Below the pieces are notes generated by a model. It was not told where the DNA came from. It saw nothing but the letters and a program-made list of their open reading frames with translations, and did not search any database. A stretch of 64,000 nucleotides of DNA from Candidatus Midichloriaceae bacterium (GTDB taxonomy: Bacteria > Pseudomonadota > Alphaproteobacteria > Rickettsiales > Midichloriaceae): the NCBI GenBank assembly GCA_044229535.1, contig JBGASU010000001.1, positions 1,406,969 through 1,470,968 on the forward strand, written 5' to 3'. Shown here piece after piece: positions 7,668 to 38,537 of the stretch (position 1 is its first letter; each line of letters begins with the position of its first letter). The translations under genes were made by a program, and so were the position numbers.

Positions 7668-7683
7668 TTAACAAAACTTTAAC
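7668..7683 (+). promoter_or_regulatory. CtrA-box-like site TTAA-N7-TTAAC upstream of the 1182-aa ankyrin gene
   Basis: TTAACAAAACTTTAAC. It ends 22 nt upstream of the -10 hexamer at 7706-7711 and 58 nt upstream of ATG 7741. Confidence 0.5.
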
Positions 7684-7702
7684 AAATTCCGCACCTTAAT
7701 TG

Positions 7703-7711
7703 TGTTATAAT
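7703..7711 (+). promoter_or_regulatory. Extended -10 promoter element (TGtTATAAT)
   Basis: TGTTATAAT at 7703-7711, about 30 nt upstream of ATG 7741. RBS-like GAGGGGA at 7728-7734. Confidence 0.5.
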
Positions 7712-7740
7712 GTCCATTTGATACGACGAGGGGAATCTCA

Positions 7741-10700
7741 ATGAACTTGCAGGAATTTAGAGCATTAGACGAATTTCAAAGATTTGATTTTTTAAAAGAA
7801 CTGGCAGGCGATGAACTCAGAGCTTTTGCTAGGGAAGTGGGTGCTGAGCAAGGAGCATCTCCCATGTTAGCAAGGATTTCTGCTAGTCCAAATTCAAACG
7901 ATGCAACTATAAAAAATCAATTAAAGATAGAATTGAGAAAGCTAGGCCTTACTTTTCAAGAGAGGCAGGCTGATATGCAGTTTGATGTTGCTGAACAACC
8001 TCAAGAGCAATTTAGTTGGGAAAAAATTAAAAGAGCGCCGTTCATTGAGCGAAAGCCAACACCGATTGATGAAGCCACAAAAGATGCTTTCTTACAGCAA
8101 TTTTATCAAGGTGAAGTGGTTGATGTTGATACAATAAACCCACTAAGCAATATTCAGGCAGTAAGAGCGCAGGTCGAATTGGTTTGCCAAAAAATGGTTG
8201 GCTATGGCTTTAGAAATTTTAATGACTTGAAAGATAAGTTTGCGGATCTGGCATTTAATATTGAAAGTGCAGAACAGCGTCAAAGAGATTTTTCCAATGC
8301 CAAGCAGATTAAGCAAGTAATGGAGTCGATTTTATACTTTGTGGAAAATACTCCTGAAGTTTCAAGAAGAGAGCTTATTGCAAATTACAAAGATACTAGA
8401 TTTATATGTGGTGATGGGACGCTGCAAAACCTAATTGATATTTTTAGCGAAATGCAATTAGGTAAAGCTGACATAGCTGCCTATGTAGCGTGGGCGAAGA
8501 GGAAAGTAGTTATTGATACGTTCTTGCCAATGTATGAACAAAATTTCTTTCACGAAGCTGGTTTAATTTACCGTATAGGAAATGAAAGGCATTATGTTGA
8601 TTCATTAATTAACGCAGTTGCTGATGAATTTGGTCTGGTAGTTCGAACACAAGATGAGGACAGGTTTATTAAAGACGCATCTAGGTATAGGGAGTTTCTG
8701 CTGGGTGAATTGAACCGAGTTTTTGCACAGCCTGAAGTGCTTAAAAACATTTTTGGCTTGGTAGTCGCTAAAATTTCTTCAAACCTTGAAAATGGCATAG
8801 ATAAGATACTGCCTGTCCAAAACCAAGTGCAAGATTTTTTAGGTAAGCTGGGAGTAGGTGATAAGTATAATTATTTCCATTTGGTGAATTGTAAAGAGAA
8901 TGGACTTAAGGATGACTTCAAAAGGGTTGTAGAGTCAATAGTTGCAAATTACATGCATGAGCAGCGTGTTATCAAGGTATCTAACATAAAACATATTTGC
9001 CAATTATTGAAAATTGCTGGCTCTTATAATTCGCAGTATAGGCAAGTTATTACCAGAGAAAATTTCCCAGAAGACGCGGATAATAACAAGGGATTTGTTA
9101 ACTTTATTTTAATTCAAAATATAGAATTAGATGAAGCTCAATTTGGAACTAAAAGCCCAATATTATATTTTGCGAGAAAAAATAGGAATATTTTTGCAGA
9201 TTTTAATCTTCCCTTTGTATTCATGCAAAGGCTACTGCAAGAAGCATCTGCTGAAGAGTTAAAAGACATTAATATTCCAGCTGACATTTTAAGATCTTCT
9301 CTCTTCTATGTAAAAACTCCAGAGCAAATTGATGTCTTAATTGCTAAGGGTGCTAATATTCAAGAAATTTCTCTTAATGGCGGCAATGCTACACGGGATG
9401 CAGCATTAAGAGGAGAAAGAGCGATAGTAGATAAATTTGCTGAACAGGGAATAGCCCCAATGAATGTTTTTGAAGGCCATGAAGATGGCGTTGACCAAAG
9501 ACGGGAAGAGGCCTTAATAAATGGCATTGTTGCAAATCAAGAAATTCTGCGACACATCGAAGATGGTGTTCCTAATATTTGTAGAATTGTTAAGTGTGGC
9601 ATGGTAAATGCGCTGCGAAAAGCTTTGGAGTTCCCAGAAGGTAGAGACGCATTAAAACTGAAAGATAAAGATGATAACGTAGCATTGCACTATGCAGCGC
9701 GCCACACAAACCCAGAATTGTTTTTGGAGATAGTAAAAACTACTGAAGGGAGAAGAGCAATAGGAGCTTATAATAAAGATAATTTCACTCCTGTTGAAGA
9801 ATTAATAATTCAGGATAGAGTTGATTTAATTAATGAGGTTCTCAAAACGCCCGAAGGTACGTTGCTTATAAATGGTGGTAACGGTAATAAATCTTTTGTT
9901 GAGCTATCATATGAACATAAGAAATATAGTTATCTTAAAACTTTATTGAAATGCAATATCTCTTTAGATCCAATCCTGAAATACAAAAACAAAGGTATGG
10001 TTCAGGATGCTGTGGATCATGAGGATTTTGAAGTATTTGGAATGCTTATGGAGCGTGCAGAGCTGAGAAACAGGTTGTTTCAATTAGAGCAGGATTCTAT
10101 ACATAAGCTGGATCAGCAAGGTTTACTAAAGCCAATATTAGAAAAATATTGGTTAGAAATTTTGGAAGGTATAGATCCTGAAGATATGGCTTTTTTTGCA
10201 GAATTCGTTTTAAAGTTTGGTTTATTAAATCAAGACATAGATGAGAAACATTCTCATGTGCTCTCAAGATTTTTACTATCGTTACAGAATTTTTATTTTC
10301 CAATGACAGATGATCTTGATAAAGTTATTAGCTTGATTATGTCTAACAAAGAGGTGCAAAAATTAGTTGTTACGGTCGACCCTCTCAGACCTCATGAGAA
10401 TGTTTTTAAACGTTTAGTAGCAGCAGGCGCCACTCAAGCTGTAGAGGCAATTCTAAATGATGATTTTCTAAGAAGGAGTCTCTATTTAACAGATGCTCAG
10501 TGCAATACTTTCCTTCATAATGTAGAGTGTAGTGAGGGCGATCCAAGTGCTTTCAATGATTATTATTTAGAAAGTTCAGAACAACAAGACAGTTTTTTTG
10601 ATTGTTTACGAAGCATAGCAGATAACCCGCATTTAAAAGCAGCTTTGCCAAGTCTTCTTTCAACCAGAAATGGTATTGGGTTTACGCCTTTACAATCGGC

Positions 10701-11289
10701 TTTAGAAGACATGCAAGAGTTGTTTCTAATCTTATTAGATTGGAGTGTGAGGCATGAGAACGTTCATTCGTTGCATATTCCAGACAATAAAGGCTGTACA
10801 CCTTTTTATAACGCCTTATTAAAATTGTACGAGATGCATATAATATCTCAGTTTGTTGACGCAGATGCAAGTTTGGTTGATTCGATTTTTGATCATGTAG
10901 ACAACGAAAGGGTGAATGTTATTTCAAGGATACTTGATCAAGCAGGCAACGAAGTCGCCTTTGGTAATGTTTTTGAATTGGTGAAAGACAATCCAATACT
11001 AATGAGAAAATTTATTGACTCTGTTGGATATGAATCAGGGTGTTCTTCGCTTGAATATGCAAGGAGGTATGACATGCCAACAATTGTAGATGCGATATTA
11101 ACTTTTGCTCAAGGTACAAGTCTTGGTTTCTCATTGCCTCCAGCTTCAGTAGAAGCGCAGGCCAGCGCATCTACTGCTTGGATTCCTGATGTTGATGCTG
11201 AAGCAGATGTTGAAATTGCTGACCCAGTATTGAATGAGATGAACAGTGATGAGTTGGAAAAAGCTCGTAGCAAACGTTCTAGGCATTGA
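7741..11289 (+). CDS. Large ankyrin-repeat protein, candidate secreted effector
   Basis: 1182 aa. ANK-like repeats include DKDDNVALHYAARHTNPELFLEIV, NGIGFTPLQSALEDMQELFLILL and DNKGCTPFYNALLKLYE. No signal peptide. Acidic region followed by a basic C-terminus (EKARSKRSRH). Confidence 0.8.
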   Translation: MNLQEFRALDEFQRFDFLKELAGDELRAFAREVGAEQGASPMLARISASPNSNDATIKNQLKIELRKLGLTFQERQADMQFDVAEQPQEQFSWEKIKRAPFIERKPTPIDEATKDAFLQQFYQGEVVDVDTINPLSNIQAVRAQVELVCQKMVGYGFRNFNDLKDKFADLAFNIESAEQRQRDFSNAKQIKQVMESILYFVENTPEVSRRELIANYKDTRFICGDGTLQNLIDIFSEMQLGKADIAAYVAWAKRKVVIDTFLPMYEQNFFHEAGLIYRIGNERHYVDSLINAVADEFGLVVRTQDEDRFIKDASRYREFLLGELNRVFAQPEVLKNIFGLVVAKISSNLENGIDKILPVQNQVQDFLGKLGVGDKYNYFHLVNCKENGLKDDFKRVVESIVANYMHEQRVIKVSNIKHICQLLKIAGSYNSQYRQVITRENFPEDADNNKGFVNFILIQNIELDEAQFGTKSPILYFARKNRNIFADFNLPFVFMQRLLQEASAEELKDINIPADILRSSLFYVKTPEQIDVLIAKGANIQEISLNGGNATRDAALRGERAIVDKFAEQGIAPMNVFEGHEDGVDQRREEALINGIVANQEILRHIEDGVPNICRIVKCGMVNALRKALEFPEGRDALKLKDKDDNVALHYAARHTNPELFLEIVKTTEGRRAIGAYNKDNFTPVEELIIQDRVDLINEVLKTPEGTLLINGGNGNKSFVELSYEHKKYSYLKTLLKCNISLDPILKYKNKGMVQDAVDHEDFEVFGMLMERAELRNRLFQLEQDSIHKLDQQGLLKPILEKYWLEILEGIDPEDMAFFAEFVLKFGLLNQDIDEKHSHVLSRFLLSLQNFYFPMTDDLDKVISLIMSNKEVQKLVVTVDPLRPHENVFKRLVAAGATQAVEAILNDDFLRRSLYLTDAQCNTFLHNVECSEGDPSAFNDYYLESSEQQDSFFDCLRSIADNPHLKAALPSLLSTRNGIGFTPLQSALEDMQELFLILLDWSVRHENVHSLHIPDNKGCTPFYNALLKLYEMHIISQFVDADASLVDSIFDHVDNERVNVISRILDQAGNEVAFGNVFELVKDNPILMRKFIDSVGYESGCSSLEYARRYDMPTIVDAILTFAQGTSLGFSLPPASVEAQASASTAWIPDVDAEADVEIADPVLNEMNSDELEKARSKRSRH

Positions 11290-11341
11290 GAAAATGAATG
11301 AATTCTCGATCTATACTTGATATACTATAAGTCTTTAGCAT

Positions 11342-11418
11342 TCCTAGGCGGCTCAGTGGTAGAGTAAGCGGCTGTTAACTGCTCGGTCGCTGGTTCGAGT
11401 TTTTAGTCCGAGGAGCCA
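11342..11418 (+). pseudogene. Decayed copy of tRNA-Asn(GTT)
   Basis: Aligns with 7493-7567 and keeps the anticodon loop CTGTTAA. Defects: C in place of U8, an A:G mismatch in the acceptor stem, and the 3' T-stem strand CCGGC replaced by TTTTAGT, so no T arm can form. Confidence 0.8.
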
Positions 11419-11521
11419 TTTTCCCCCATTTCATATCTTTATCTAAAAAAGTCTTTTGTAAAATTACCTCTGCTTGCTTTTTCTGGCGTATGGGGTAGAA
11501 TCTTCTCACTACTAACTAATC

Positions 11522-14281
11522 ATGGTTAAGCCCTTGTCAGCGAATACAAACATCAACCTATCGTCGATGCAGCCTATCTCAATTGAAAACGAGATGAGAA
11601 AGTCTTATTTAGACTACGCAATGAGCGTTATCGTATCACGTGCACTACCAGATTGTAGGGATGGTTTAAAGCCTGTTCATAGGCGTATTCTTTTCGCTAT
11701 GCACGAGGCTAATAACTACCACGATAAGCCTCACAAAAAATCAGCCAGAATCGTCGGTGACGTAATGGGTAAATATCACCCTCATGGTGATAGCGCCATT
11801 TACATGGCATTAGTTCGTATGGCTCAAGATTTCTCTCAGAGAGTAGCTCTTATCGATGGGCAAGGTAACTTTGGTTCAATGGATGGCGATGCTCCTGCGG
11901 CAATGCGTTATACAGAGTCACGTTTAGCAAAAATTTCATCATCCATGTTGGTTGATCTTGATTATCAAACCGTAGATTTCCAACCTAACTATGACGGTTC
12001 TGAAAAAGAGCCAAGAGTGCTGCCAGCACAATTTCCAAATTTATTAGTGAACGGAACAAGTGGTATTGCCGTTGGTATGGCAACTAACATTCCTACCCAT
12101 AACTTGGGCGAAGTTATCGATGCTTGTATCGCTTATATTAAAAATCGTGAAATTACATTAGAAGAAGTATTAGAATTAGTCCCAGCACCAGATTTTCCTA
12201 CAGGCGGTGTTATTATGGGGCATGCTAGAGCAAGAACGGCACTTGCAACTGGTAGAGGATCTATTGTCGTGCGTGGTAAAATTGATTTTGAAGAAATAGG
12301 TGGGCGTAATGCTATTGTTGTTCATGAGTTGCCATATCAGGTTAATAAATCTGAATTATTAAAACATGTTGAGCAATTATCGCGCGATAAAGTGATTGAA
12401 GGCATTTATGAAATGCGTGATGAGTCAAATAAGCTTGGCGTTCGCATGGTGTTTGAACTTAAAAAAGACGTAGTTCCAGATGTCGTATTAAGTCAGCTTT
12501 ATAAATTCACAGCCTTACAGACTAGCTTTGGCGTAAATATGTTAGCCTTGCATCAAGGCAGACCAATGACCATGAATGTGTTGGATATTGTTAAAGCATT
12601 CGTAGAATTTAGAGAAGAAGTTGTAACACGCAGAATTTCATTCCTACTAAATAAAGCGCGTACTAGAGCCCATGTTTTAATTGGCTTATCATTAGCAGTT
12701 GCTAATATTGATGAAGTGATCGCTCTTATTAAATCTTCGCAAGATCCAGTTGTTGCTAAGAAAAAATTAATGGATAAATTCTGGGATGCAGAAACAGTAA
12801 TTCCATTATTAAAACTTGTAGATGACTATAGAAACGAATTGAAAAACAATCAGTGTAAATTTACTGATGAGCAAGCAACTGCAATTTTAGAAATGAGATT
12901 GCAAAGACTTACTGGCCTTGAGAAAGACAAAATTGAAAAAGAATTAGGAGAGCTTGCGACTGAAATTAAAGACTATCTTGAAACTTTAGGATCTAAAGAA
13001 AAATTGATGGGTATAATTACCACAGAGTTACTAGATATTAGAGAAAGATTTGCGACACCTCGTAAAACAGAAATTCAAATTAATGACGATGATGTTGATA
13101 TTGAAGATTTAATTCAACGTGAAGACATGGTTGTAACAACGACATTAGGTGGCTATATCAAACGCGTACCACTCGCAACATACCGCGCGCAAAAACGTGG
13201 TGGTAAAGGTCGTTCGGCGGTTACCATGAATGATGATGATATGACAACCGATATCATTGTATCAAATACACATACTCCACTCCTATTCTTCTCAGATGCT
13301 GGAAAAGTATATCGTTTGAAAGTTTACAAACTTCCTTTAGGAAACCCACAAGCAAAAGGCAGGGCATTAGTAAACTTGTTGCCTTTAGCGCAAGATGAGA
13401 AAATTACCAATATTACCCCGATGCCGGAAGATCCGGCGACATGGGAACATTTCGCAATTATGTTTGCAACTGCGCAAGGCAACATTAGAAGAAATGATCT
13501 TGCTGCGTTCTCAAACATCAATGCCAATGGTAAAATTGCAATTCGTCTTGATGAAGGGGATAAATTGATTGGCGTTAATATCTGTAATGAAACCGATCAC
13601 GTTATGCTTTCAACTAAGAAAGGCAAATCACTACGATTCCCTGCAAATGCTATTCGTGTGTTCAAGAGTAGAACATCAGACGGCGTGCGTGGTATTAAAT
13701 TAGCACAAAAAGGTGATGCCGTAGTCTCAATGGCAATATTGAAAGACTCGACTATCTCTATTGAGAAGCGTGAAGAGTTCTTAAAAATTCCAGTTGAATC
13801 AAGAAAAGAATTCGTCACCAATAAAGATCAAGCAGCATTTGAAGCAAAAATTGCGGAAAGAGCAATTGAGAACAGAACTATAACCACAGATGAAGCTTGT
13901 CAGCTTGCAATTGGTGAAGAATTTATTCTTTCAATGACTGAAAAAGGCTACGGTAAACGCTCTTCGGCTTATGAATATCGTGTAGCAGGCCGTGGTGGAC
14001 AGGGCGTGTTTAATATAGACACCTCAGACCGTAATGGCGATGTAATTGCCAGCTTCCCAGTGGATGAGGGTGACCAAATTATTCTTATCACTAATGCTGG
14101 TACGCTAATTAGAACAAACGTTAAGGACATTCGTATCACTGGCAGGAATGCAATGGGTGTTCGTCTACTTAACACCAAGGAAAACGAAAAAGTAATTTCA
14201 GCAACACGCGTTCTTGGTTCTGAAGAAGCTGAAAATGAGTTGAACGAAGCTTTGGAGGCTGCAGCAGATGCCAATAGTTGA
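11522..14281 (+). CDS. gyrA: DNA gyrase subunit A
   Basis: 919 aa. [53 protein letters not shown]-terminal beta-pinwheel repeats. Confidence 0.97.
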
Positions 14282-14456
14282 AGTAAAGATGCTTGAAGGT
14301 CGTACTGACGACCAAAAGCGTAAATTAGTAAAAGAGATTACAGAAGTCATCTGTCGCACTATAGACTCAACACCTGAAAAAGTACGAGTATTCATCAACG
14401 AAATGCCTAAGAAACACTATGCTATTGGCGGAGTTCTGGAGAGTGATAAGAGCTAA
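14268..14456 (+). CDS. 4-oxalocrotonate tautomerase family protein
   Basis: 62 aa. [26 protein letters not shown] has catalytic Pro1 and the typical beta-alpha-beta length. 14-nt overlap with the gyrA end. Confidence 0.85.
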
Positions 14457-14571
14457 GTACTAAATATTCATTCAGGTAACTTTCCGTTTAAGGGACCTGT
14501 ATTGTTTAGTACCGTTATTAGACTAGCAATAGTCTGTATACAATCGTCTTCCCGAATTCGAAGAATTCGTT

Positions 14572-14638
14572 GGATGTGCTAATTTTTGCTTAAAGCCCGC
14601 ATTCGCGGTGCAAAAATCCCCCCCCCAAGAGCACATCC
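14572..14638. repeat. Long imperfect hairpin carrying a C9 bulge
   Basis: GGATGTGCT (14572-80) pairs with AGCACATCC (14630-38). ATTTTTGC (14582-89) pairs with GCAAAAAT (14610-17). Apical CCGC-ATTC-GCGG at 14597-14608. C9 tract at 14618-14626. Confidence 0.6.
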
Positions 14639-14762
14639 AAACATCTTCTTCTCATTACTTGTTTTTCTAACACCCCCCCCTATTTTACAACCTATAGGTT
14701 ATCAGATAAAAAACCAGCCAGCCCAAATTACTTAGCTAAGTTTTTAATATTTTTAGCTCAAA

Positions 14763-14828: not shown

Positions 14829-16973
14829 ATGTCCCAGTTCCAACGCTTCATTTCACAAGATTTTTATTTGAGTCGGGATTTTCCAAGCGATGGAAGTGCT
14901 GGCCCATTTACAGGATATGGCGCACAAGAGGAGCAGTTATACAACGCTTATATGGCTGCAAGGAGAGTAGATAATTTTGATGCTGATAAATATCGTAAGG
15001 CTGGAGAGGCATATTTTAAGTTTCAACAAGACTACCGTACTGATCCTAACTCTTCTATTCCACTTGTTTTATCTCAGGAACAGCAGATATTTGAATCTTG
15101 GAAACAAGCTAATCCACAATCCCTAAATCCAGAACCTCTTACTGAGACAACCCGTGCACACTCTGTTATTTATGATCAACTCCCTCCTACATCGATGAAT
15201 AGATTTGAATTCCAAAAAATAATAACGGGTTTACAGGGGGTGGGTGACACCAAATCAGGGGAGGTAAATAATGCTGCTCAGAGGTTTGAAAATGCAAATA
15301 AAAAAGGTAATGAAAAATATGCAGATCTAGGGGCTATTCCTTTGAGAGGAGTTGCAGATTTTGCTAAAGAGTACCAAAAGCAAAATATTGATAAAGATAA
15401 GAAACAACAAGACTTCCCACTTAATATAATTACGGACAGAAAGAATGCGCCAATGCTGAAGCTTGCATCAGAAGATCCTAAACTTGCTGCTGCAGCTATT
15501 GAAGCATTTAAAGAGCGCGGAGGAGAGAAGGGGCTGAATGCTTATAAAGCTGCAGATATTGGTAAAGGTATAGAATTAGCAATGACTGCTGCAAATAATG
15601 TTGTTGGTGAAGATTCAAAAAAACAGGCAATTAAAAATGTAAGGAATTTACTAATCGACAACAAATTTGATCAGAAAAAAGTTAAAGCAATTGAAGATGG
15701 GGTAAAAGGAACGATTCCTCAGAAAACACAATTTGCCGAAAAAATGCGTCAGAATCTAGGGTTGTTTGGAAAAGCTGGGGATGATTATGCAATTAATCTT
15801 CACCCCATAGATAGCTGGAAGAATACAAAAGAAACTGCCAAAAAAATTAAAACAAATAATCCATTTAAATCATTATACAATATAGTAAAATTGGTAGCTT
15901 ATGAAATCCCTAAGTTAGCTGTCTCTTTGGTTGTTGCCACACCTATTGCTGCAATAAGAGCTGGGGTTCAAACTGTAAAAGAGAATAAAAATCAAAGATT
16001 AGCTAAGGCTGCTGAAAATTGTTCGAAATATCCAAAAGTAGCTGCTGCAGTTCGCAATGCTCTTGGAGCTGGTGGTAAGAAAAAAGTTACGAATAAGGAA
16101 TTAAATAAAGTAATGGCTGCTTTAGGTAAGAAAGCCCAAGTTTTAGAAAATTCAACTCTATCAAAAGAAACTATAACTAATGCGTTAAATTCAAAAGCTT
16201 CAGCAACACATCATCTATCTAATGATACCAAGAAGGATTATGTAGTTAAACAAGAAAAAGAAAAGCAAATACGTAAGCTCGTTGATGATGCTCCTGAGCT
16301 TAAAAAATTGGATAAAAATGCTAAAGCGGAGATTGTAGCAAAGCTAATGGATCTTCATAAACCAGATAATTCGCCTGATCCTAAGAAAAACCAAGCGGCA
16401 CATCACTCTCTCAATTTCGCTTTAAAAAATGAGACATTAGTATCAAGACTAGTTAATGAATCGGTGAAAGTTCATAGTGCTGTAACCCGCGACCAAAATC
16501 TCAATAAAAAAGTTGAGCAGCAATTCAAAGATACATCGAAATTAACCAATTTAGAGCAAGTAGCTCAAGGTAAGAGCTCTGTAGTTCTAGATGATCTATA
16601 CAAATTAGCAGATAGAAGTAAAAAACCTGAAGTCTCTCAAGAAGTGGATTCGCAATTAAGGCAAAGTTTTAAAAGCGAGCAAACAAAACTAGAAGAAAAA
16701 AGGCAAGCTTGGGAGAAGGCATATAGTAAAGGTGAAGATACTATAAATTACGAGAAAGACTATATAAAGCAACAACAGGTTTTAGATAAGGCAGGTAAAG
16801 AATATTTTAAAGAAAAAATCAAAACTGCAGTGCCAGAAGAAGCAGAAAAAATGGCGAACAACATTGCGGGCTATAAACAGGCCATAGCCAATGCCGACAA
16901 GAGGATAGGTGAGCTGAGCCCAGATCAAGTGCCAAAAACAGGTCAAACAACAACTCGAGCACGTGGGGTGTAA
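14829..16973 (+). CDS. Hypothetical Lys/Glu-rich 714-aa protein with one central hydrophobic segment
   Basis: Long ORF with coding-like composition and no recognisable catalytic motif. Hydrophobic stretch IVKLVAYEIPKLAVSLVVATPIAAI. Basic C-terminal tail. Confidence 0.6.
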   Translation: MSQFQRFISQDFYLSRDFPSDGSAGPFTGYGAQEEQLYNAYMAARRVDNFDADKYRKAGEAYFKFQQDYRTDPNSSIPLVLSQEQQIFESWKQANPQSLNPEPLTETTRAHSVIYDQLPPTSMNRFEFQKIITGLQGVGDTKSGEVNNAAQRFENANKKGNEKYADLGAIPLRGVADFAKEYQKQNIDKDKKQQDFPLNIITDRKNAPMLKLASEDPKLAAAAIEAFKERGGEKGLNAYKAADIGKGIELAMTAANNVVGEDSKKQAIKNVRNLLIDNKFDQKKVKAIEDGVKGTIPQKTQFAEKMRQNLGLFGKAGDDYAINLHPIDSWKNTKETAKKIKTNNPFKSLYNIVKLVAYEIPKLAVSLVVATPIAAIRAGVQTVKENKNQRLAKAAENCSKYPKVAAAVRNALGAGGKKKVTNKELNKVMAALGKKAQVLENSTLSKETITNALNSKASATHHLSNDTKKDYVVKQEKEKQIRKLVDDAPELKKLDKNAKAEIVAKLMDLHKPDNSPDPKKNQAAHHSLNFALKNETLVSRLVNESVKVHSAVTRDQNLNKKVEQQFKDTSKLTNLEQVAQGKSSVVLDDLYKLADRSKKPEVSQEVDSQLRQSFKSEQTKLEEKRQAWEKAYSKGEDTINYEKDYIKQQQVLDKAGKEYFKEKIKTAVPEEAEKMANNIAGYKQAIANADKRIGELSPDQVPKTGQTTTRARGV

Positions 16974-16988: not shown

Positions 16989-18428
16989 CTACTCACCCTG
17001 TGCTTTGGTAAAGCCTTCTACGTTATCAAAAGTATATAAATTTTGTATCAAGGACATAGTCAGCCCAGATTTTTCAATTTTTCCAAGCAAGGCTACTATA
17101 GCACCTTGTGACATACCTGTATCTTTAAACCCAATAAATCTACATTGTAACAAGTCTGAAACAACACCTTCGGCATCACTATCTGGCCAAACTTTCAGGC
17201 CTTTTTGTGAAACAGTGTGAAGCTTCATATTTGGTTCAATGTTTTCCAGCTTACCAATTATTTGCTCAAGGGAGTTATCGTTGGCGCTGATGTAAACATC
17301 TACCCCTATTAATTGTTGATCATATATAGGTTTGACATATTTATGCGCTTGAATTCTTTTTGCTTCTTTAGGAGCAACAGCTGGTAGTTGAGTTGGTTTT
17401 TTGCCAAGATTTGCTATAACTGCTTCTGCGAATTCCATTGTAGTTGCTTTTTTCTTGCTCTTACCTTCTTTATAAATATCACCTGTGTGAATGCCATTTT
17501 CAATTGTTGTTAACCAAGCATTTTGAATAATTGTTGCAACATCGCCTTGTCCTATATATTCAAGCATTAGGATTGCACCGTTCAACAAGCCAGATGGATT
17601 AGCTATCCCCTTGCCAGCAATGTCTGGAGCGGAGCCATGCACAGCTTCAAACATCGCAAAGTCATCGCCTATATTTGAGCTTCCAGCAAGTCCGACTGAG
17701 CCTGAAACTTCTGCAGCTATATCTGATACTATATCTCCATAAAGATTTAATGTAACTATCACATCAAAATCCTGTGGCCTTGATGCGATTCTTGCAGAGC
17801 CTATGTCGACTATTATTGAATCGGCTTTTATTTCTGGGTATTCTTTTGCTACTTCTTTGAATATTGTATGGAAGCATCCATCAGAAATTTTCATGATGTT
17901 GTCTTTTATTAAGCAAGTAACTTTTTTGCGACCATTTAATTTCGCGTACTCAAATGCATAGCGAATGATTTTTTCAGAGCCCTGTCTGGTAATAATTTTG
18001 AATGCTATGTTATTGTTACCGTTTACTCTGTACTCTACACCTGCGTATAAATCTTCTTCATTTTCTCGAACAATTACCATGTCCATTTTTTTATGGTTTG
18101 TTTCTACAAATGGATAGTAGGTTGCTACAGGACGGACGTTTGCATATAAGCCTAGTGACTTCCTAAAAGTCACATTTAAGCTTTTATAGCCTTTTCCTTG
18201 AGGGGTAGTTATGGGGGCTTTAAGTAGGACTTTTGTGCGTTTTACAACATCCCATGCTTCTTTTGAAATGCCAGACGAAAAACCTTTTGTATACAATTTT
18301 TCGCCGATTTCTATGGTTTCTATTTTAATCCGCGCTTTTGCCGCTTTTAAAATATTTAGAGTAGCCTCCATAATTTCTGGTCCAATACCGTCTCCATAGG
18401 CAACTGCAATAGATGTCATCTCGCTCAT
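16989..18428 (-). CDS. icd: Isocitrate dehydrogenase (isocitrate/isopropylmalate dehydrogenase family)
   Basis: 479 aa. IAVAYGDGIGPEIM, NLYGDIVSDIAA and FEAVHGSAPDIAGKGIANP motifs. Confidence 0.92.
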   Translation of the reverse strand: MSEMTSIAVAYGDGIGPEIMEATLNILKAAKARIKIETIEIGEKLYTKGFSSGISKEAWDVVKRTKVLLKAPITTPQGKGYKSLNVTFRKSLGLYANVRPVATYYPFVETNHKKMDMVIVRENEEDLYAGVEYRVNGNNNIAFKIITRQGSEKIIRYAFEYAKLNGRKKVTCLIKDNIMKISDGCFHTIFKEVAKEYPEIKADSIIVDIGSARIASRPQDFDVIVTLNLYGDIVSDIAAEVSGSVGLAGSSNIGDDFAMFEAVHGSAPDIAGKGIANPSGLLNGAILMLEYIGQGDVATIIQNAWLTTIENGIHTGDIYKEGKSKKKATTMEFAEAVIANLGKKPTQLPAVAPKEAKRIQAHKYVKPIYDQQLIGVDVYISANDNSLEQIIGKLENIEPNMKLHTVSQKGLKVWPDSDAEGVVSDLLQCRFIGFKDTGMSQGAIVALLGKIEKSGLTMSLIQNLYTFDNVEGFTKAQGE

Positions 18429-21632: not shown

Positions 21633-21633
21633 A

Positions 21634-21810
21634 ATGGAAGCTTTTATTTTTTTAATCCCATTAACGCTTATAATTGTGTTTGGTATGCTGCTAGCCTTCT
21701 TTTGGTGTTTGAAGAATAAGCAATATGAAGACCTAGATGGAGCAGCAAGCAGAATTTTATTTGATGACGCCCTCCGAAAAGATGTTGCAAAAAAACCAGA
21801 AAATGAGTAG
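21634..21810 (+). CDS. ccoS: cbb3-type cytochrome oxidase maturation protein CcoS/FixS (58 aa, not in ORF track)
   Basis: Hand translation: MEAFIFLIPLTLIIVFGMLLAFFWCLKNKQYEDLDGAASRILFDDALRKDVAKKPENE. It has a single TM followed by the CcoS signature W-x3-(S/N)-x-Q-(F/Y)-(D/E)-D-L-(E/D)-G-x3-R-I-L-x-D-D. Confidence 0.8.
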   Translation: MEAFIFLIPLTLIIVFGMLLAFFWCLKNKQYEDLDGAASRILFDDALRKDVAKKPENE

Positions 21811-21830
21811 ATTCCCTTTTACCTCATTAT

Positions 21831-21907
21831 GGCGGAGTAGCTCAGTTGGTTAGAGCGGCGGAATCATAATCCGTGTGTCGGGGGTTCAAATCCCTCCTCC
21901 GCTACCA
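21831..21907 (+). tRNA. tRNA with CAT anticodon, most likely elongator tRNA-Met (tRNA-Ile2/lysidine not excluded)
   Basis: 77 nt. Acceptor GGCGGAG/CTCCGCT, D arm GCTC-AGTTGGTTA-GAGC, anticodon arm GCGGA-ATCATAA-TCCGT, T arm GGGGG-TTCAAAT-CCCTC, then A-CCA. Lacks the initiator hallmarks: no 1:72 mismatch of the C:A type and no GGG/CCC run in the anticodon stem. Confidence 0.85.
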
Positions 21908-22040
21908 TTTATATATTAAATTTGATAATTTGTGCTTAATTTGCTTTTTTATCTTGATATATATATGCGGTATAATATGTTTTGTCGGAGTTAAAGGACG
22001 TTCCTTATGCTCCATAAAATAAGAATATAAAGGGGCAAAT

Positions 22041-24840: not shown

Positions 24841-24855
24841 TTAACCATTTGTTAA
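24841..24855 (+). promoter_or_regulatory. CtrA-box-like site TTAA-N7-TTAA upstream of the 814-aa orphan gene
   Basis: TTAACCATTTGTTAA. It ends 50 nt upstream of ATG 24905 and is followed by the tandem TAGAGTGA/TAGAGTCA. Confidence 0.5.
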
Positions 24856-31253: not shown

Positions 31254-31256
31254 ATT

Positions 31257-32879: not shown

Positions 32880-32887
32880 CCTGTAAA

Positions 32888-34333
32888 TTACCTTTGGTTA
32901 CCTCTATCTCGGCTTTGCTCTATATTTTTCACCTGTTCATCATAGAATTCAGTAATATCTCCAGACATAGCTTTTGCTGCGCCTTCTAATACATTCCATC
33001 CTGCAGAAAATGCGTTATAGGCCTTACTTTTTACGCAACCTTTTAACAACAAAAATTTCATTTCTGTAGGAAGTAATTTGTTTAGCAGAGTGCTTAATGG
33101 TGGGCAAACTCCTGCTGACAAGAACATTTCGATCACTTCTTTATTTCGATGAGCTGCACATACAGTAAGAGCATTGTCACCAAATCTATTCATCGGCTCT
33201 AAAGCTGTTCTTAGGAGGTCAGGGTAATCTTTGATTGCACTAATTAGTTCTGCAATCAATTTGGTATCATTACGCATAGCAGCCCTAAAAAGTAAATTTG
33301 CATTAAAAAAATCACGATTATCAAAAGAACTTTTTAAGAAATTATAATTGTATTCTGCTGCTTCTAGTATTGATTTCATTAACTCGTTATCTCCATTATT
33401 TACTGCATGGTAGAGCGTGGTGAAGCCAGAATTATCTCTTGCCCAGATGTTGTAATTAGGGTGAGCAAAGCATTTTGAGAAAATATATGCAGCTGTACTA
33501 TCAGACAAGCGATTGAAATTATAAATATAATGCCCTTGGGATATTAGATCTAAAGCCAGAGCTATATTGCCATTTCCCAACGCAGTAATTAGTTCTGGGC
33601 TATTTTGGCCATTATGCCCTTCATAATAACCTAAAAACCTATGCAGCTCTTTTAGTAGATCTTTATTACCAGCAACAAATAAATCTTTATAAAAGTCCTG
33701 CAAATCTTCCTTAGTATCTAGATTGTATAGTGGCATATTTTGTATGCCTTTTATTCCTTGGCCACATCCATTCTCAACAAGGTATTTGAATATTTCAAAT
33801 TGCCCATATCTCAAAGCAAAAGCTAGCGGTGATATAAATTCTCTTACGTTATCTAATGTTTTAATAGTGGGCAGTCTAAAGTCCTCAGCTTCATTAAAAT
33901 TTTCTTTTGTCTTCTCAATTTCTTCTGGTGTCTTATTTCTCTGCTCGCCTGCGCGATAATCGAAGACTTTGAACTCCTTTTTATGATATGGCGCTAGAAT
34001 TTTTAAGAGTTTTAAGCTGTTGTGTCTAATTGCCGCTTCCAAAGCATTATCGCCATCAATACTCTTTTCTTCATTGGTTTTTGGGTCTGTATATACTGCT
34101 GAGCTTCTTAAATTCAAAACTTCAGCATTTTTAGCAACTATAGCGTTTACAACTGTTTCTAAATTAAAGCTCATATCCCAAGCATCCTGCTCTGACGGGG
34201 CAAGCATGTGCAAAATGGTGTTCCCATTTTTATCTTGCTCTAATATTTGCTCTGGAGTTAAGTCGGCAATTATCTCAAGCGCTTGTTCGGTTGTAACTCC
34301 TCTAACATTAAAAATGTCGGATATACTTCTCAT
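32888..34333 (-). CDS. Ankyrin-repeat protein, candidate effector
   Basis: 481 aa. ANK repeats include KNGNTILHMLAP, DGDNALEAAIRHNSLKLLKIL, SGFTTLYHAVNNGDNELMKSIL and FGDNALTVCAAHRNKEVIEMFLSAG. No signal peptide. Basic C-terminus (SRDRGNQR). Confidence 0.85.
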   Translation of the reverse strand: MRSISDIFNVRGVTTEQALEIIADLTPEQILEQDKNGNTILHMLAPSEQDAWDMSFNLETVVNAIVAKNAEVLNLRSSAVYTDPKTNEEKSIDGDNALEAAIRHNSLKLLKILAPYHKKEFKVFDYRAGEQRNKTPEEIEKTKENFNEAEDFRLPTIKTLDNVREFISPLAFALRYGQFEIFKYLVENGCGQGIKGIQNMPLYNLDTKEDLQDFYKDLFVAGNKDLLKELHRFLGYYEGHNGQNSPELITALGNGNIALALDLISQGHYIYNFNRLSDSTAAYIFSKCFAHPNYNIWARDNSGFTTLYHAVNNGDNELMKSILEAAEYNYNFLKSSFDNRDFFNANLLFRAAMRNDTKLIAELISAIKDYPDLLRTALEPMNRFGDNALTVCAAHRNKEVIEMFLSAGVCPPLSTLLNKLLPTEMKFLLLKGCVKSKAYNAFSAGWNVLEGAAKAMSGDITEFYDEQVKNIEQSRDRGNQR

Positions 34334-34394
34334 GTAAAAACCTTAATTATATGTTTGACATGTGTATTATAACACAGTTTTAGCGTGGAATTTA

Positions 34395-34409
34395 TTAAGA
34401 TTTTGTTAA
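34395..34409 (-). promoter_or_regulatory. CtrA-box-like site TTAA-N7-TTAA upstream of the 481-aa ankyrin gene
   Basis: Plus strand TTAAGATTTTGTTAA; on the gene strand TTAACAAAATCTTAA, close to the 7668 site TTAACAAAACTTTAA. Its near edge is 62 nt from ATG 34333. Confidence 0.5.
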
Positions 34410-34452
34410 ATTTTGTTGGTATTTCTTAGGGGTGGTCGAAATTAAGAGTTTT

Positions 34453-34998
34453 TTAAAAACTCGTGGTTTTTAGACCTTCGCGTAAATACGCGTATCCTGT
34501 TATGAGAGTTAGAACTGCTGCAGACCAGAGTAATATTTCGCCAATTATATCTAAGTTTGGAATGCCAGTGGCCTTCTCACCTAATAGTACGATAATAATC
34601 GCAACCATCTGTAATCCAGTTTTGATTTTTGCTAAATTACTAACTGGGATGCTCACTTTAAATTCGGCCAATGATTCCCTTAAGCCAGATACAGTGATTT
34701 CTCTAAGAAGTATCAGTAAGCATGGGATGAAGTGAGCTCTGTCAAAATGTACTAACATCACTAGTGTTGATGCAACCAGCAGTTTATCGGCAATAGGGTC
34801 AAAAACACGGCCAAAGCTAGAGTGAGCATTGTATTTGCGGGCAATTAGGCCGTCTAAATAATCTGTAATGCTAGCAAAAATGAAGATTATTGCCGTTACC
34901 CAATGCGAGATTTTGCCATCAAGGTAAAAGGCGATAATCAGTATTGGAATTAATGCGATTCTTAATAAAGTCAGGTAATTAGGTATGTTTTTAAACAT
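34453..34998 (-). CDS. pgsA: CDP-diacylglycerol--glycerol-3-phosphate 3-phosphatidyltransferase
   Basis: 181 aa. CDP-alcohol phosphatidyltransferase motif DYLDGLIARKYNAHSSFGRVFDPIADK. Multi-TM. Confidence 0.9.
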   Translation of the reverse strand: MFKNIPNYLTLLRIALIPILIIAFYLDGKISHWVTAIIFIFASITDYLDGLIARKYNAHSSFGRVFDPIADKLLVASTLVMLVHFDRAHFIPCLLILLREITVSGLRESLAEFKVSIPVSNLAKIKTGLQMVAIIIVLLGEKATGIPNLDIIGEILLWSAAVLTLITGYAYLREGLKTTSF

Positions 34999-35117
34999 TT
35001 TAAATATAGCTTTTTGACTGCGTTAGGCATGATATTGTCTCAATACTAAGACGTGTTGTCAATCAGGTAGAATTGAAATCTTAACAAAAAAGATGTTGAC
35101 ATCTTAACACTTGCTTG

Positions 35118-35146
35118 TTTACAAGTGCTGTAAAACGTAATATAAT
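35118..35146 (+). promoter_or_regulatory. Sigma70-like promoter TTTACA-17-TATAAT upstream of the phoB-like gene
   Basis: -35 TTTACA at 35118-35123, 17-nt spacer, -10 TATAAT at 35141-35146. ATG at 35175. Confidence 0.45.
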
Positions 35147-35174
35147 CAGTAATATAGAATAAAAAAGTAGTTTT

Positions 35175-35894
35175 ATGGTAAAAAATTTGCAACCAATGAT
35201 ATTAGTTGTTGAAGACGATGATTCTATATCTTCCATAATCAAGTATAATTTGAAAAAAGCGGGATACTTAGTCAATGTTGTTGATAATGGAAATGATGCC
35301 ATTGATTTTGCAAAAGGTAGTACTCCAGATTTAGTTTTATTAGATTGGATGCTTCCAGGAATGACAGGAATTGATGTATGTAAAGCATTAAGGTCTATGC
35401 CTGAAACAGCTAATATTCCAATTATAATGTTATCTGCTAAAGGCGAAGAAATAGATAAAATTACAGGTCTTGAAAGAGGAGCTGATGATTATATCACAAA
35501 ACCTTTCTCACCAGTCGAGTTGTCTGCAAGAATAAAGGCCGTATTAAGAAGAATAAGACCAGCTTTCTCTGGTAAATTTTTAGAGTTTGATGATATAATA
35601 ATGGATCTTTCTATGCACACAGTGTCGCGTGATGGTAAAGAATTAAAAGTATCGCCTATTGAATTCAAAATTCTCCAATCATTGATGGAAAATCCAGGCA
35701 GAGTTCTATCTCGTGAAGCGATAATGGATAAAATTTGGGGCACTGAAATCTATGTTGGAACTAGAACTATAGATGTTCACATTACTAGATTAAGAAAAAT
35801 TTTAGTCGCTTCAAGCAAGGACGGCGAAGATGTTATCAAGACAGTTAGGCTTGGTGGTTATGCTCTAAAAACTGGTAAGAAAAAAGAAAAATAA
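35175..35894 (+). CDS. phoB: OmpR/PhoB-family response regulator, PhoB-like
   Basis: 239 aa. DLVLLDWMLPGMTGIDV, MLSAKGEEIDKITGLERGADDYITKPFSPVELSARIKAVLRR and RTIDVHITRLRK closely match the PhoB pattern as I remember it. Confidence 0.8.
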   Translation: MVKNLQPMILVVEDDDSISSIIKYNLKKAGYLVNVVDNGNDAIDFAKGSTPDLVLLDWMLPGMTGIDVCKALRSMPETANIPIIMLSAKGEEIDKITGLERGADDYITKPFSPVELSARIKAVLRRIRPAFSGKFLEFDDIIMDLSMHTVSRDGKELKVSPIEFKILQSLMENPGRVLSREAIMDKIWGTEIYVGTRTIDVHITRLRKILVASSKDGEDVIKTVRLGGYALKTGKKKEK

Positions 35895-35915
35895 ATTTAT
35901 AAGAGAGATTCCAGG

Positions 35916-38507
35916 ATGGAATTCTTGAAAAAGAGATTTATAGACAATAAGACATTAGTCTCAAAAGCCAATAGTTTTGTAGTAAGGAATCATTACGGTC
36001 AGACAGCACCAATTTATGTCGGTTATTTTCTAGCTTTTATTTTTACAGCGCTTATGGCGTTTTTATTCGATGGTAACCCATTGCTTATAACTGGCGTATT
36101 CCTAATATTTTTTGGCTTTGCCTGTCTTATTAATAGTTTTTATCTGAATAAATATTGTGAAATTAATAACGCTATAGAGTTTCAAAATGCAATATATACG
36201 GCTGCATTGAGAGGAGATTGTGATTACTGTTTAATTTTCAATGAGGATGGAGAAGTAGTATATGCAGATCCCAGATTGCAAAAACTCTCAGCTGCCAAAG
36301 TTTTTAAAAATGTATCTGAGTTAGATATGTTATTGGGAGCTTTTAAAGTATCTCCTGAAAAGACACAGCTTATTCATGAAGTAGTATACCGCAGTAAATT
36401 CAAAGAACAAACACCAGACCATCATCAGACAATTAGTAAAAATGATCGCTCAGTAATACTGAAGCCGTTTCATATTGATGAAGGTGATTTTTCTATAGCG
36501 GTTTGGACATTAGAAAGACCTGCTGGTTTTACGACTATAAAAATCTCAAAGATTGAAGAAGAAAACGAAATTTCTCAAATTGTTGAGAGTATAGCAATAG
36601 GTTTTTATGAGTTGGATCACACTGGGCATTTGCTAAAATGTAACGAGTATTTGGCAAGAATGTTAGGATATGACAAGAAAGAGTTGATTATAAAAGATCT
36701 AAAATTTGATTCTTTAATTGATAAAGATGAATCAATGGACTCTCTTATCTCTACACCCAAAATGGCTAATGCTATTCTTGGGAACTGGCAAGGTTTTTTA
36801 ACTTTCAGGGCGAAATTTAACGAGCATATACATGCCTTTGTGATACAAAAAGCATATTTCAAATCAAATGGGCAAATAGATAGAATCATAGGTTATGTTA
36901 TCAAGCTTCAAGATGAATCTTTGATGCTTAAATCAAAAGGTGTAGAGAAAGGTTGGATTGATTATAGTTGGAAATGCTTTTTTGAAAACTCGCCATATCC
37001 TGTAGCAATTCTAGATAAAGCTGGGGTTGTTTTAAAGATTAACAGATCTTTTGAAGAAATTTTACCAGCAAGTTATTTGGGTATTGAGTTTGAAAAAATA
37101 TTTGTAGATTCTGATAAAGATTTGATAGGAAAACAAATAGCTGACATAGTTTCAAAAAATGCACAGCCAGTTCCAATTAGAAATGCTAGAGTAAATGATT
37201 CTAAGAGGGTCTTGGACGTTTATTTAGGAAAAATACTTGATCTAAACGGCGATACTTATGGATTTATGGTGCGTATTGCCGATATTACTCAGCAGCTAGA
37301 GTTGGAAAACAGCTTATCTCACGCGCAAAGAATGCAGACAATAGGACATCTTGCTGGCTCAATAGCGCATGATTTTAATAATCTGCTTACAGCCATAGCT
37401 GGATTCTGTGATTTGCTGTTTATGAGACATACGGTTGGAGATCCATCATTTGCACACATTATGCAGATAAAGCAAAGTGCAGACAGGGCAACAAATCTAG
37501 TAAGAAGGCTTTTGGCTTTTTCTAGAAAACAAACTTTAAAGCCGCAGATAATAAACCCTGCTGAGCTTTTTACAGATTTCTCTTCATTGATACAAAGGCT
37601 AATAGGATCAGAGATTAATTTTTCTCAGAAGATAGATCCTAATATATGGAGTGTAAAAGTCGATCCAGTCCAGATGGAACAAGTTATTCTAAATCTTATT
37701 GTTAATGCTCACCAAGCTATGGAAAATGGAGGCAATTTAGAGGTTAGAGTCAAAAATGTAATCCTGCAAAAAGATGATATTGTTTTAAGGGGGGTGGTAG
37801 CTCCATCGGGTGAAGGAATGCCGCCAGCTGGAGAATATGTTTGTATAGAAGTAGAAGATAATGGATCTGGTATTCCTCAAGATATAATACTTAAGATATT
37901 TGAACCATTCTTTACTACTAAAGCTGAAAAGTCTGGTACAGGGCTTGGGTTGTCTACTGTATATGGTATAGTTCACCAGTCTGAGGGCTATATTTATGTT
38001 AGGAGTGTTGTAGGTAAAGGAACAAATTTTATAATTTATTTTAAGCGTCACCAATTATCATTGGAGGAGCAGATTGAATTACAAAGAATAGAGCAAGAAA
38101 AGATCAAAGAAGAGGCTAATAATAAGCAAGATTACTCTGGAAAAGGGGTGATAGTATTGGTTGAAGATGAGGAAGCAGTTCGTTTATTTGCCAAAAATGT
38201 TTTGATTAGTAAGGGATATGATGTAATAGAATTTAACTCAGCAAAAAGCGCATTAGAGCAGCTAAGAGCGGATATTCATAGAATTGATTTGATAATCTCT
38301 GATGTAATGATGCCAGAAATGACTGGTCCAGCGTTTATAAGCGAGTTAAGTAAAATCAAGCCTAATATAAATGTTATTTTCGTATCAGGCTATGGAGAAG
38401 AGGCATTCAGTGAAGAATATGGAGAAAAGAGGGATTTCCACTTTATTCCTAAGCCATTTAGTCTAAAACAGCTCGTGGCTAAAGTAAAAGAGGTGATAGG
38501 AAGTTGA
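35916..38507 (+). CDS. cckA: Hybrid sensor histidine kinase/response regulator, CckA-like
   Basis: 863 aa. Two N-terminal TM segments, PAS-like regions, and H-box IGHLAGSIAHDFNNLLTAI followed by GDPSFAHIMQIKQSADRATNLVRRLLAFSRKQTLKP (CckA-like). N-box LNLIVNAHQAM, G boxes DNGSGI and GTGLGLSTVYG. C-terminal receiver VLVEDEEAV...LIISDVMMPEMTG. Confidence 0.8.
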   Translation: MEFLKKRFIDNKTLVSKANSFVVRNHYGQTAPIYVGYFLAFIFTALMAFLFDGNPLLITGVFLIFFGFACLINSFYLNKYCEINNAIEFQNAIYTAALRGDCDYCLIFNEDGEVVYADPRLQKLSAAKVFKNVSELDMLLGAFKVSPEKTQLIHEVVYRSKFKEQTPDHHQTISKNDRSVILKPFHIDEGDFSIAVWTLERPAGFTTIKISKIEEENEISQIVESIAIGFYELDHTGHLLKCNEYLARMLGYDKKELIIKDLKFDSLIDKDESMDSLISTPKMANAILGNWQGFLTFRAKFNEHIHAFVIQKAYFKSNGQIDRIIGYVIKLQDESLMLKSKGVEKGWIDYSWKCFFENSPYPVAILDKAGVVLKINRSFEEILPASYLGIEFEKIFVDSDKDLIGKQIADIVSKNAQPVPIRNARVNDSKRVLDVYLGKILDLNGDTYGFMVRIADITQQLELENSLSHAQRMQTIGHLAGSIAHDFNNLLTAIAGFCDLLFMRHTVGDPSFAHIMQIKQSADRATNLVRRLLAFSRKQTLKPQIINPAELFTDFSSLIQRLIGSEINFSQKIDPNIWSVKVDPVQMEQVILNLIVNAHQAMENGGNLEVRVKNVILQKDDIVLRGVVAPSGEGMPPAGEYVCIEVEDNGSGIPQDIILKIFEPFFTTKAEKSGTGLGLSTVYGIVHQSEGYIYVRSVVGKGTNFIIYFKRHQLSLEEQIELQRIEQEKIKEEANNKQDYSGKGVIVLVEDEEAVRLFAKNVLISKGYDVIEFNSAKSALEQLRADIHRIDLIISDVMMPEMTGPAFISELSKIKPNINVIFVSGYGEEAFSEEYGEKRDFHFIPKPFSLKQLVAKVKEVIGS

Positions 38508-38521
38508 TTTTTATATAAAAA

Positions 38522-38537
38522 TTAACTTTTTATTAAC
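38522..38537 (+). promoter_or_regulatory. CtrA-box-like site TTAA-N7-TTAAC upstream of the truncated CckA paralog
   Basis: TTAACTTTTTATTAAC. It ends about 46-49 nt upstream of the start (TTG 38583 or ATG 38586). The second half-site continues as TTAACCATT, as at 14763 and 24841. Confidence 0.45.

Follow-up and report, generated by a model that had tools for sequence, protein, structure and literature searches.

The window analysed here, a 64-kb stretch with 35% G+C, comes from a Candidatus Midichloriaceae bacterium and carries five intergenic sequences of the form TTAA-N7-TTAA, a motif of the regulator CtrA. Bacteria of this family are uncultured and live inside the cells of ticks, protists and aquatic invertebrates. 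We mapped the genes of the window from a list of open reading frames (ORFs), with a cut-off of 100 amino acids (aa), together with Pfam and NCBIfam scans. Each of the five CtrA-type boxes lies in front of one gene: two ankyrin-repeat genes, two orphan genes and a shortened paralog of the kinase CckA, whose full-length gene is also in the window. The boxes, assigned to two classes (A and B), and their genes are arranged as follows.

7668-7683, plus strand: CtrA-type box, class B, TTAACAAAACTTTAAC; precedes the 1182-aa ankyrin gene
7741-11289, plus strand: ankyrin-repeat gene, 1182 aa; weak Ank matches; singleton cluster at 90% identity
14763-14778, plus strand: CtrA-type box, class A, TTAACCATTTCTTAAC, 9-mer and 8-mer; precedes the 714-aa orphan
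14829-16973, plus strand: orphan gene, 714 aa; no Pfam domain; fast-evolving
24841-24855, plus strand: CtrA-type box, class A, TTAACCATTTGTTAA, extended to 24856 as TTAACCATTTGTTAAG; precedes the 814-aa orphan
24905-27349, plus strand: orphan gene, 814 aa; no Pfam domain
32888-34333, minus strand: ankyrin-repeat gene, 481 aa; Ank_2, 6e-14
34395-34409, minus strand: CtrA-type box, class B, TTAACAAAATCTTAA, extended from 34394 as TTAACAAAATCTTAAT (gene strand); precedes the 481-aa ankyrin gene
35916-38507, plus strand: cckA, 863 aa; hybrid histidine kinase with PAS, HisKA, HATPase and REC domains
38522-38537, plus strand: CtrA-type box, class A, TTAACTTTTTATTAAC, extended to 38540 as TTAACTTTTTATTAACCAT; between cckA and its N-terminal paralog
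38586-39413, plus strand: CckA N-terminal paralog, 275 aa from ATG 38586 (276-aa ORF)

An earlier note on this DNA had proposed the five sites, and all of them are where it placed them, within intergenic DNA and on the strand of the gene that follows. The motif matches both published forms of the CtrA site, TTAA-N7-TTAAC and TTAACCAT, and the same forms have been used for Caulobacter, Ehrlichia and Wolbachia (PMC4426382, PMC9791040). TTAA-N7-TTAA is perfect in all five boxes and TTAACCAT is contained in three; the box at 38522 runs on as TTAACCAT and so fits both the 9-mer and the 8-mer form. Every box opens with TTAAC, read on the coding strand of the gene that it precedes. The two near-identical pairs that the note saw among the sites are real. 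From the distal TTAA to the ATG we measured 58, 51, 49, 61 and 49 nucleotides (nt) for the boxes at 7668, 14763, 24841, 34395 and 38522, respectively, that is, 49 to 61 nt where 47 to 62 nt had been claimed; for the paralog we counted from ATG 38586, the start common to all homologs. The intergenic regions holding the boxes range from 78 to 372 nt in length. By a rough calculation, the chance of five uniformly placed sites sharing one 13-nt distance range is about 1e-5 to 1e-4.

The boxes might still be chance matches in AT-rich intergenic DNA, with no function. Speaking for chance, the count over the whole window is unremarkable, with 12 matches to TTAA-N7-TTAA and 8.1 +/- 2.9 expected from dinucleotide-preserving shuffles (not significant), and TTAA is denser in intergenic than in coding DNA (12.4 versus 8.4 per kb). 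The non-coding part holds 6 of the 12 matches, 5 of them fully within intergenic segments. Intergenic DNA makes up 5.2 to 5.5 kb, or 8 to 9% of the window, and each segment was shuffled separately, keeping its dinucleotide content. Against this background the five intergenic matches compare with 1.14 to 1.17 expected (P = 0.005 to 0.006). For TTAAC-N6-TTAA the five matches compare with 0.27 expected, and 0 of 4,000 shuffles reached five; for TTAACCAT, on either strand, four matches compare with 0.38 expected (P = 2.5e-4). The predicted enrichment over shuffled intergenic sequence is thus borne out within the window. The note's own rough expectation had been about 10 matches in 64 kb, with 1 or 2 in a non-coding fraction of about 10 to 12%.

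The enrichment was replicated in relatives, which speaks against chance. By cckA identity the nearest among GTDB species representatives are two uncultured Candidatus Midichloriaceae bacteria (loci L001, 76%, and L003, 74%), followed by two unclassified Rickettsiales (L002, 60%, and L004, 55%) and Candidatus Jidaibacter (L005, 43%); a closer relative, at about 87% DNA identity, is represented in Joint Genome Institute (JGI) metagenomes (L087-L089). In 102 kb of L001-L005 plus L080 we found 13 intergenic TTAA-N7-TTAA sites versus 2.16 expected, and 0 of 3,000 shuffles reached 13, while the 92 kb of coding DNA in these loci holds only 8. In 22 kb of L087, all three matches are intergenic. In the relatives, too, most intergenic sites are 37 to 61 nt away from a start codon whose gene is on the matching strand (41 to 61 nt for most sites of the window and the relatives together), which agrees with the positional preference that had been proposed. 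We also built a weight matrix from the relatives' sites only, excluding homologs of window genes, and scored both strands of the window with it. Its top three matches are, in order, 14763, 38522 and 24841, with 18.8 to 23.8 bits versus 9.3 for the next (also given as 16.7 to 23.8 bits versus 12.4 or less). An enrichment that survives shuffling of local dinucleotides and recurs in relatives, a fixed ATG distance and strand orientation, three sites ranked first by an independent matrix, and half-sites conserved where the spacer diverges (see below) make chance an extremely improbable explanation.

The genes that carry boxes in the relatives are orphans of 143, 148, 189, 681, 754 and 842 aa without a Pfam domain, a weakly ankyrin-like 366-aa gene, and pilin-like genes with an N-terminal methylation motif (291 aa in L003; 268 and 286 aa in L087). 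Pilin genes are classical CtrA targets in Caulobacter. A compact example of the promoter class is found in L003 at 18210-18388, where a divergent pair of orphans (842 aa and 143 aa) has back-to-back boxes, each 48 to 51 nt from its own start. The window proteins examined are singletons at 90% identity. For the 814-aa orphan we found no homolog except itself among 5.8 billion proteins. For the 714-aa orphan only two distant homologs were found, in L003 and L087. The L003 homolog is the 842-aa protein, with 40% identity over residues 169-459 and a different genomic context; it has TTAACTAATTCTTAA 48 nt upstream. In L087 the ortholog, which is syntenic, carries TTAACCATTTATTAAC 52 nt before its start; that genome is so closely related, with 87% identity across the entire intergenic region, that the match is uninformative. 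The upstream DNA and the gyrA/tautomerase region are likewise about 87% identical to L087, and the protein itself (L087 10001-12265) is 51% identical over only 21% of its length. Such divergence would be typical of genes under host-driven diversification.

Downstream of the boxes, a -10-like hexamer (TATAAT, TATAAG or AATAAG) begins 20 to 25 nt after the distal TTAA, mostly at 23 nt. It is present for four of the five window boxes:

7703-7711, plus strand: predicted extended -10, TGTTATAAT; TATAAT starts 23 nt past the distal TTAA
14798-14803, plus strand: predicted -10, TATAAG; 20 nt past the distal TTAA
34366-34374, minus strand: predicted extended -10, TGTTATAAT; TATAAT starts 23 nt past the distal TTAA
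38560-38565, plus strand: predicted -10, AATAAG (TATAAG in relatives); 23 nt past the distal TTAA

Counted from the distal TTAAC, the -10 follows after 21 to 22 nt in three promoters and after 18 nt in one. A consensus scan for a sigma-70 -35/-10 pair with 16- to 18-nt spacing found none in 7400-7760, and over 34300-38620 it found no canonical promoter at the box regions 34334-34452 or 38508-38585. The same scan finds a near-consensus promoter of phoB-cckA, TTTACA-17-TATAAT, at 35118-35146. If the -10 hexamer is taken as -12 to -7, the repeat would span about -50 to -36. Since the repeat would sit where a -35 hexamer is missing, the promoters are predicted to be activator-dependent. Terminator hairpins or repeat elements were also considered as an identity for the boxes and rejected: no terminator-like structure lies between pgsA and the 481-aa ankyrin gene or between cckA and the paralog. 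An AT-only palindrome around the 38522 box was set aside as well; it is not kept in L080.

CtrA could also bind these sites and repress or silence the lineage-specific genes, as it represses some promoters in Caulobacter (PMC4287350). There, however, repression is tied to sites over the -10 (PMC4287350, summarised in PMC6180460), whereas full CtrA motifs near the -35 activate, with the 5' nucleotide at -39 in ctrA P2 and at -49 in podJ P1 (PMC4287350, PMC6180460). In the window the boxes come before the predicted -10 elements, and the regions scanned show no -35 hexamer that could drive basal transcription. We consider repression very unlikely; the predicted positions favour activation.

The kinase that would control CtrA is encoded in the window, as had been claimed. 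The best solved-structure matches of the 863-aa protein are those of Caulobacter CckA, 5IDJ and 5IDM (201 bits), and together with its domain set this identifies it as a genuine CckA ortholog. The truncated paralog downstream of it also stands up to examination: residues 65-269 of the 276-aa ORF align to CckA residues 4-212 with 42% identity (E = 7e-56). The paralog family is small, with only six clusters at 90% identity among the 5.8 billion proteins, 44 to 68% identical, and wherever the context is available its gene lies directly downstream of cckA. Its members have invariant motifs in common with CckA; at the N terminus they add an extension of about 62 residues that is conserved within the family and specific to it. 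A structure model has a mean predicted local distance difference test (pLDDT) score of 56, which is low confidence, and 70 to 80 in the C-terminal domain; in it, two long helices lead into an alpha/beta domain, and every structural neighbour of this C-terminal domain is a PAS domain. Judging from its conservation, the family is under purifying selection and is neither an assembly artefact nor a pseudogene.

The promoter of the paralog gene is conserved along with it. Five lineages (the window, L001, L003, L081/82 and L084-86), whose paralog proteins are 57 to 68% identical to that of the window, have the block AAAATTAACTTTTTATTAAC(C/T)ATTA...TATAAG unchanged or almost unchanged, while the 3' end of cckA and the leader diverge. 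In L080, where the paralog is at 44% identity, the box reads TTAACTAAAAATTAAC: both TTAAC half-sites and a 46-nt ATG distance are kept and the spacer has changed. Half-sites that are kept while the spacer differs are the signature of a dimeric binding site, not of general sequence conservation.

Which protein reads the boxes is a separate question. The response regulator gene immediately upstream of cckA was considered as ctrA and rejected, since its product is a PhoB ortholog (292 bits with TIGR02154 versus 157 with the CtrA model), with 45% identity to E. coli PhoB versus 36% to a Caulobacter CtrA sequence. The two genes (35175-38507 in the window) are separated by a 21-nt gap in six lineages: the window, L001, L002, L003, L005 and L080. 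Upstream of phoB there is a conserved region with TTAAY-A6, then ATTGACA, then TTTACA-17-TATAAT. The adjacency and the conserved promoter suggest that Midichloriaceae transcribe the cell-cycle kinase together with phosphate signalling.

The boxes could accordingly be real promoter elements that are read by a factor other than CtrA: the PhoB ortholog, another winged-helix response regulator, or a SciP-like or small regulator. PhoB-type regulators bind direct repeats with 11-bp spacing that replace the -35, which fits this idea, as does the adjacency of phoB and cckA in the six lineages. It is also favoured by the search for ctrA, which was not found in the 64-kb window or in the genome-collection and encoding-contig loci L001-L089; tblastn with the Caulobacter sequence found only PhoB-like genes there. 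Furthermore, SciP peaks from chromatin immunoprecipitation (ChIP) in Caulobacter contain TTAACAT (PMC4287350). Against another factor, the recognition-helix stretch of the PhoB ortholog is nearly identical to that of E. coli PhoB (RTIDVHITRLRK versus RTVDVHIRRLRK), which predicts TGTCA-type Pho boxes, not TTAAC. Indeed, CTGTCAT-type heptamer repeats with 11-bp periodicity, which would mark a Pho box, are not what we found; the half-sites are TTAAC, and the motif is an exact match to both canonical CtrA forms. As for ctrA itself, we expect it elsewhere in the genome, because Rickettsiales retain the CckA-CtrA system (PMC2877005). The ctrA gene of R. prowazekii complements a Caulobacter ctrA deletion, which indicates that the binding specificity is conserved in Rickettsiales (PMC2877005). 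Overall, we see only a small chance that another factor reads the boxes.

Our preferred reading, to which we give a probability of roughly 0.72, is that the five boxes are predicted operator elements of one CtrA-dependent promoter class. That the sites would function as CtrA-type boxes in the promoters of lineage-specific genes is well supported by the intergenic enrichment, its replication in relatives, the conserved half-sites and ATG distance, the matrix ranking of three sites and the predicted promoter elements; we strongly infer, rather than observe, that CtrA would be the protein that binds them. A promoter of this class would consist of a short A-rich flank, a TTAAC-N6-TTAA(C) direct repeat with its halves one helical turn apart, a spacer of about 22 nt, a TATAAT/TATAAG-like -10 and then a leader of about 25 to 35 nt to the ATG. 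CckA (35916-38507) would control the phosphorylation of CtrA, and phosphorylated CtrA would bind the repeat as a dimer and recruit RNA polymerase. By probable activation rather than repression, this would switch on the genes for two ankyrin proteins and two orphans, as well as that for a copy of the CckA sensor region anchored in the membrane; the target proteins may act on the host. The earlier note had suggested that effector-like genes belong to a CckA-CtrA cell-cycle or developmental regulon. This is supported in part: the boxes are enriched and conserved and CckA is encoded here, whereas "effector-like" refers to ankyrin repeats and orphan status only.

Several findings weigh against this CtrA-dependent class, beginning with the failure to find ctrA in the loci examined. 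The 814-aa orphan promoter has no convincing -10. The association with gene class, in which a perfect box precedes 5 of about 11 lineage-specific genes and 0 of about 22 housekeeping genes with their own upstream region (Fisher p = 0.002), uses classes that the analyst assigned post hoc. Nor is the association exclusive: several window orphans have no perfect box, and neither do two further ankyrin genes, at 52795-54567, which is inside an operon, and at 62056-63576, which has its own 107-nt upstream region with a half-site only. Flagellar genes, flgA and flgH in the window and fliC and fliQ in L087, also lack a perfect box.

The two ankyrin boxes raise a further difficulty. On the matrix derived from relatives they score only about 8.5 to 9 bits, and their A-rich spacer sets them apart as a second class. 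They belong to a 47-nt promoter module, running from the box through the extended -10, that is identical at 38 of 47 positions between 7665-7711 (plus) and 34366-34412 (minus), while the flanks are unrelated. The 1182-aa and 481-aa proteins themselves have no reportable blastp similarity. For these two genes alone, the block could thus be a copied promoter module in which TTAA-N7-TTAA is incidental or serves another regulator that acts on the shared AAATTCC. The low matrix scores are in line with such copying, as is the metagenome scan, in which no related copy was identified: the module TTAACAAAANNTTAANAAATTCC gave 22 matches on contigs with a G+C of 0.19 to 0.62, which is uninformative, the downstream TGTGTTATAAT was present in 0 of the 22, and the best match, L110, has no similarity to the window. 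Both ankyrin boxes are, however, perfect TTAAC-N6-TTAA, their 23-nt offset to the -10 equals that of the conserved promoter of the cckA paralog, and neither promoter has a canonical -35 at standard spacing. We regard a merely copied module as unlikely.

The box in front of the CckA paralog raises the possibility of feedback. Besides its N-terminal extension, the paralog has only the membrane anchor and the first PAS-like domain of CckA, and we speculate that such a copy of the sensor alone, driven by a CtrA-type promoter, acts back on the kinase. In the fullest version of this idea, the paralog would be a CtrA-induced partner or decoy that pairs with full-length CckA and feeds CtrA output back onto the switch between kinase and phosphatase; together with the box-driven orphan and ankyrin genes, this would make CckA-CtrA the master switch for a programme of host interaction or development that only Midichloriaceae have. 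We find this extended scheme possible but doubtful.

Two further candidate sites were noted besides the five boxes:

34442-34456, minus strand: second perfect TTAA-N7-TTAA, TTAAAAAACTCTTAA; 108 nt upstream of the 481-aa ankyrin gene; function doubtful
48062-48080, minus strand: weak candidate, TAAATTTTCTCTTAACCAT, with one mismatch and the 8-mer; lies 62 nt in front of an operon of three orphans
46725-47999, 45191-46675 and 44439-45203, minus strand: apparent operon of three orphans (424, 494 and 254 aa)

The first, a sixth perfect intergenic match, overlaps a palindrome, GAGTTTTTAAAAAACTC, at the pgsA stop codon (34436-34456), and a similar sequence, TTAAAAAAGAGTTAA, is found in L003, 107 nt upstream of the weakly ankyrin-like gene. 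The second is kept only as a weak candidate, because there is no -10 at the usual spacing and no box before the L002 homolog of the operon gene. The 494-aa and 254-aa products of this operon are paralogs (36% identity), and in L002 a homolog of the 424-aa product is encoded downstream of cckA. Also on the minus strand, at 42072-43134, a 167-aa and a 216-aa ORF overlap over 92 nt. In L001 and L003 conservation of the 167-aa ORF begins only at about residue 58, so its true start is probably later. A conserved G/C-run element, GGGGGGTGGGAG, lies in the shared region upstream of the 216-aa gene.

Other features accompany the boxed genes. The box at 7668 lies between a tRNA gene and the ankyrin gene: tRNA-Asn(GTT), at 7493-7567, is 100 nt upstream of it. 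A second tRNA gene, tRNA-Met(CAT), is at 21831-21907, within the 21633-22040 gap. Ahead of the 714-aa orphan, a 62-aa ORF resembling 4-oxalocrotonate tautomerase (14268-14456) overlaps the end of gyrA; it falls below the ORF cut-off, is kept in L087 and makes the intergenic region before the orphan shorter. Between this ORF and the box promoter lies a non-coding block, 14457-14760, with nested hairpins, for example GGATGTGCT...AGCACATCC, and a minimum free energy (MFE) of -68 kcal/mol for 309 nt. The block is single-copy and 87% identical in L087-L089 and has no Rfam family match; a small RNA and a complex terminator are possible identities. The window also encodes lpxD-fabZ-lpxA-lpxI, flgA, flgH, tolQ, tolR and a PhoR-like kinase. 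An affinity to Wolbachia, first suggested by the ankyrin genes and the 35% G+C, or to other Anaplasmataceae was rejected, because the gene content (the lipid A operon, flagellar genes, tolQ/R, the PhoB-type regulator and the PhoR-like kinase) does not fit and the nearest cckA loci are from Midichloriaceae.

A promoter class of this kind would offer a way to find co-regulated, fast-evolving and probably host-directed genes in Midichloriaceae genomes and metagenome-assembled genomes (MAGs) directly from sequence. It also predicts that a switch in the cell cycle or in development governs when the box genes are expressed, as in Ehrlichia, and the CckA sensor-domain paralog is a defined candidate for a feedback component. 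We found no literature on CtrA-dependent regulation in Midichloriaceae.

The closest parallel is with the CtrA-activated promoters of Caulobacter crescentus, which have identical half-sites, 11-bp periodicity and the 8-mer variant (PMC4287350, PMC6180460). The predicted position over the -35 of promoters without a -35 of their own, and the pilin-type targets in the relatives, are further likenesses. Unlike in Caulobacter, the targets in the window are mostly orphan and ankyrin genes rather than cell-division, methylation or class II flagellar genes, the flagellar genes examined have no perfect box, and the -10 elements are E. coli-like (TATAAT/TATAAG). In Ehrlichia chaffeensis, electrophoretic mobility shift assays (EMSA) and ChIP sequencing (ChIP-seq) defined a CtrA regulon of 211 genes, including bolA, surE, ompA, gshA/B and gst (PMC9791040). 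The window shares with Ehrlichia an obligate-intracellular type of Rickettsiales and the same consensus motifs, and the Ehrlichia regulon has been rebuilt around lineage-specific genes for survival and infection (PMC9791040). The family (Midichloriaceae versus Anaplasmataceae) and the targets differ, and the regulon of the window is predicted from sequence. Ehrlichia sites can also be far upstream, for example at -181 to -166 from the start codon, whereas the ATG distance in the window is tightly fixed.

In Wolbachia, pattern matching for the 8-mer and 9-mer upstream of ORFs gave 34 to 55 ORFs per genome (Christensen & Serbus 2015; PMC4426382), and a 2025 mSystems study described a conserved box upstream of midA (PMC12455994). 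Neither study appears to analyse the position of sites relative to predicted promoter elements (PMC4426382, PMC12455994), and the 2025 search covered positions 0 to -30 only, which would miss sites like those in the window (PMC12455994). The window also differs from Wolbachia in having lipid A and flagellar genes. Rewiring of the CtrA regulon in intracellular Rickettsiales is already established, and the present case extends it rather than coming as a surprise. A second, partial cckA-like ORF likewise has a precedent in a Rickettsiales genome, as Wolbachia has a partial copy in wNfe and pseudogenes in wMel and wAlbB (PMC7397232). Unlike those copies, the paralog in the window belongs to a conserved family whose genes always follow cckA directly and carry a box promoter in every case. 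This conserved, box-driven paralog of the CckA sensor domain is the most original element of the locus.

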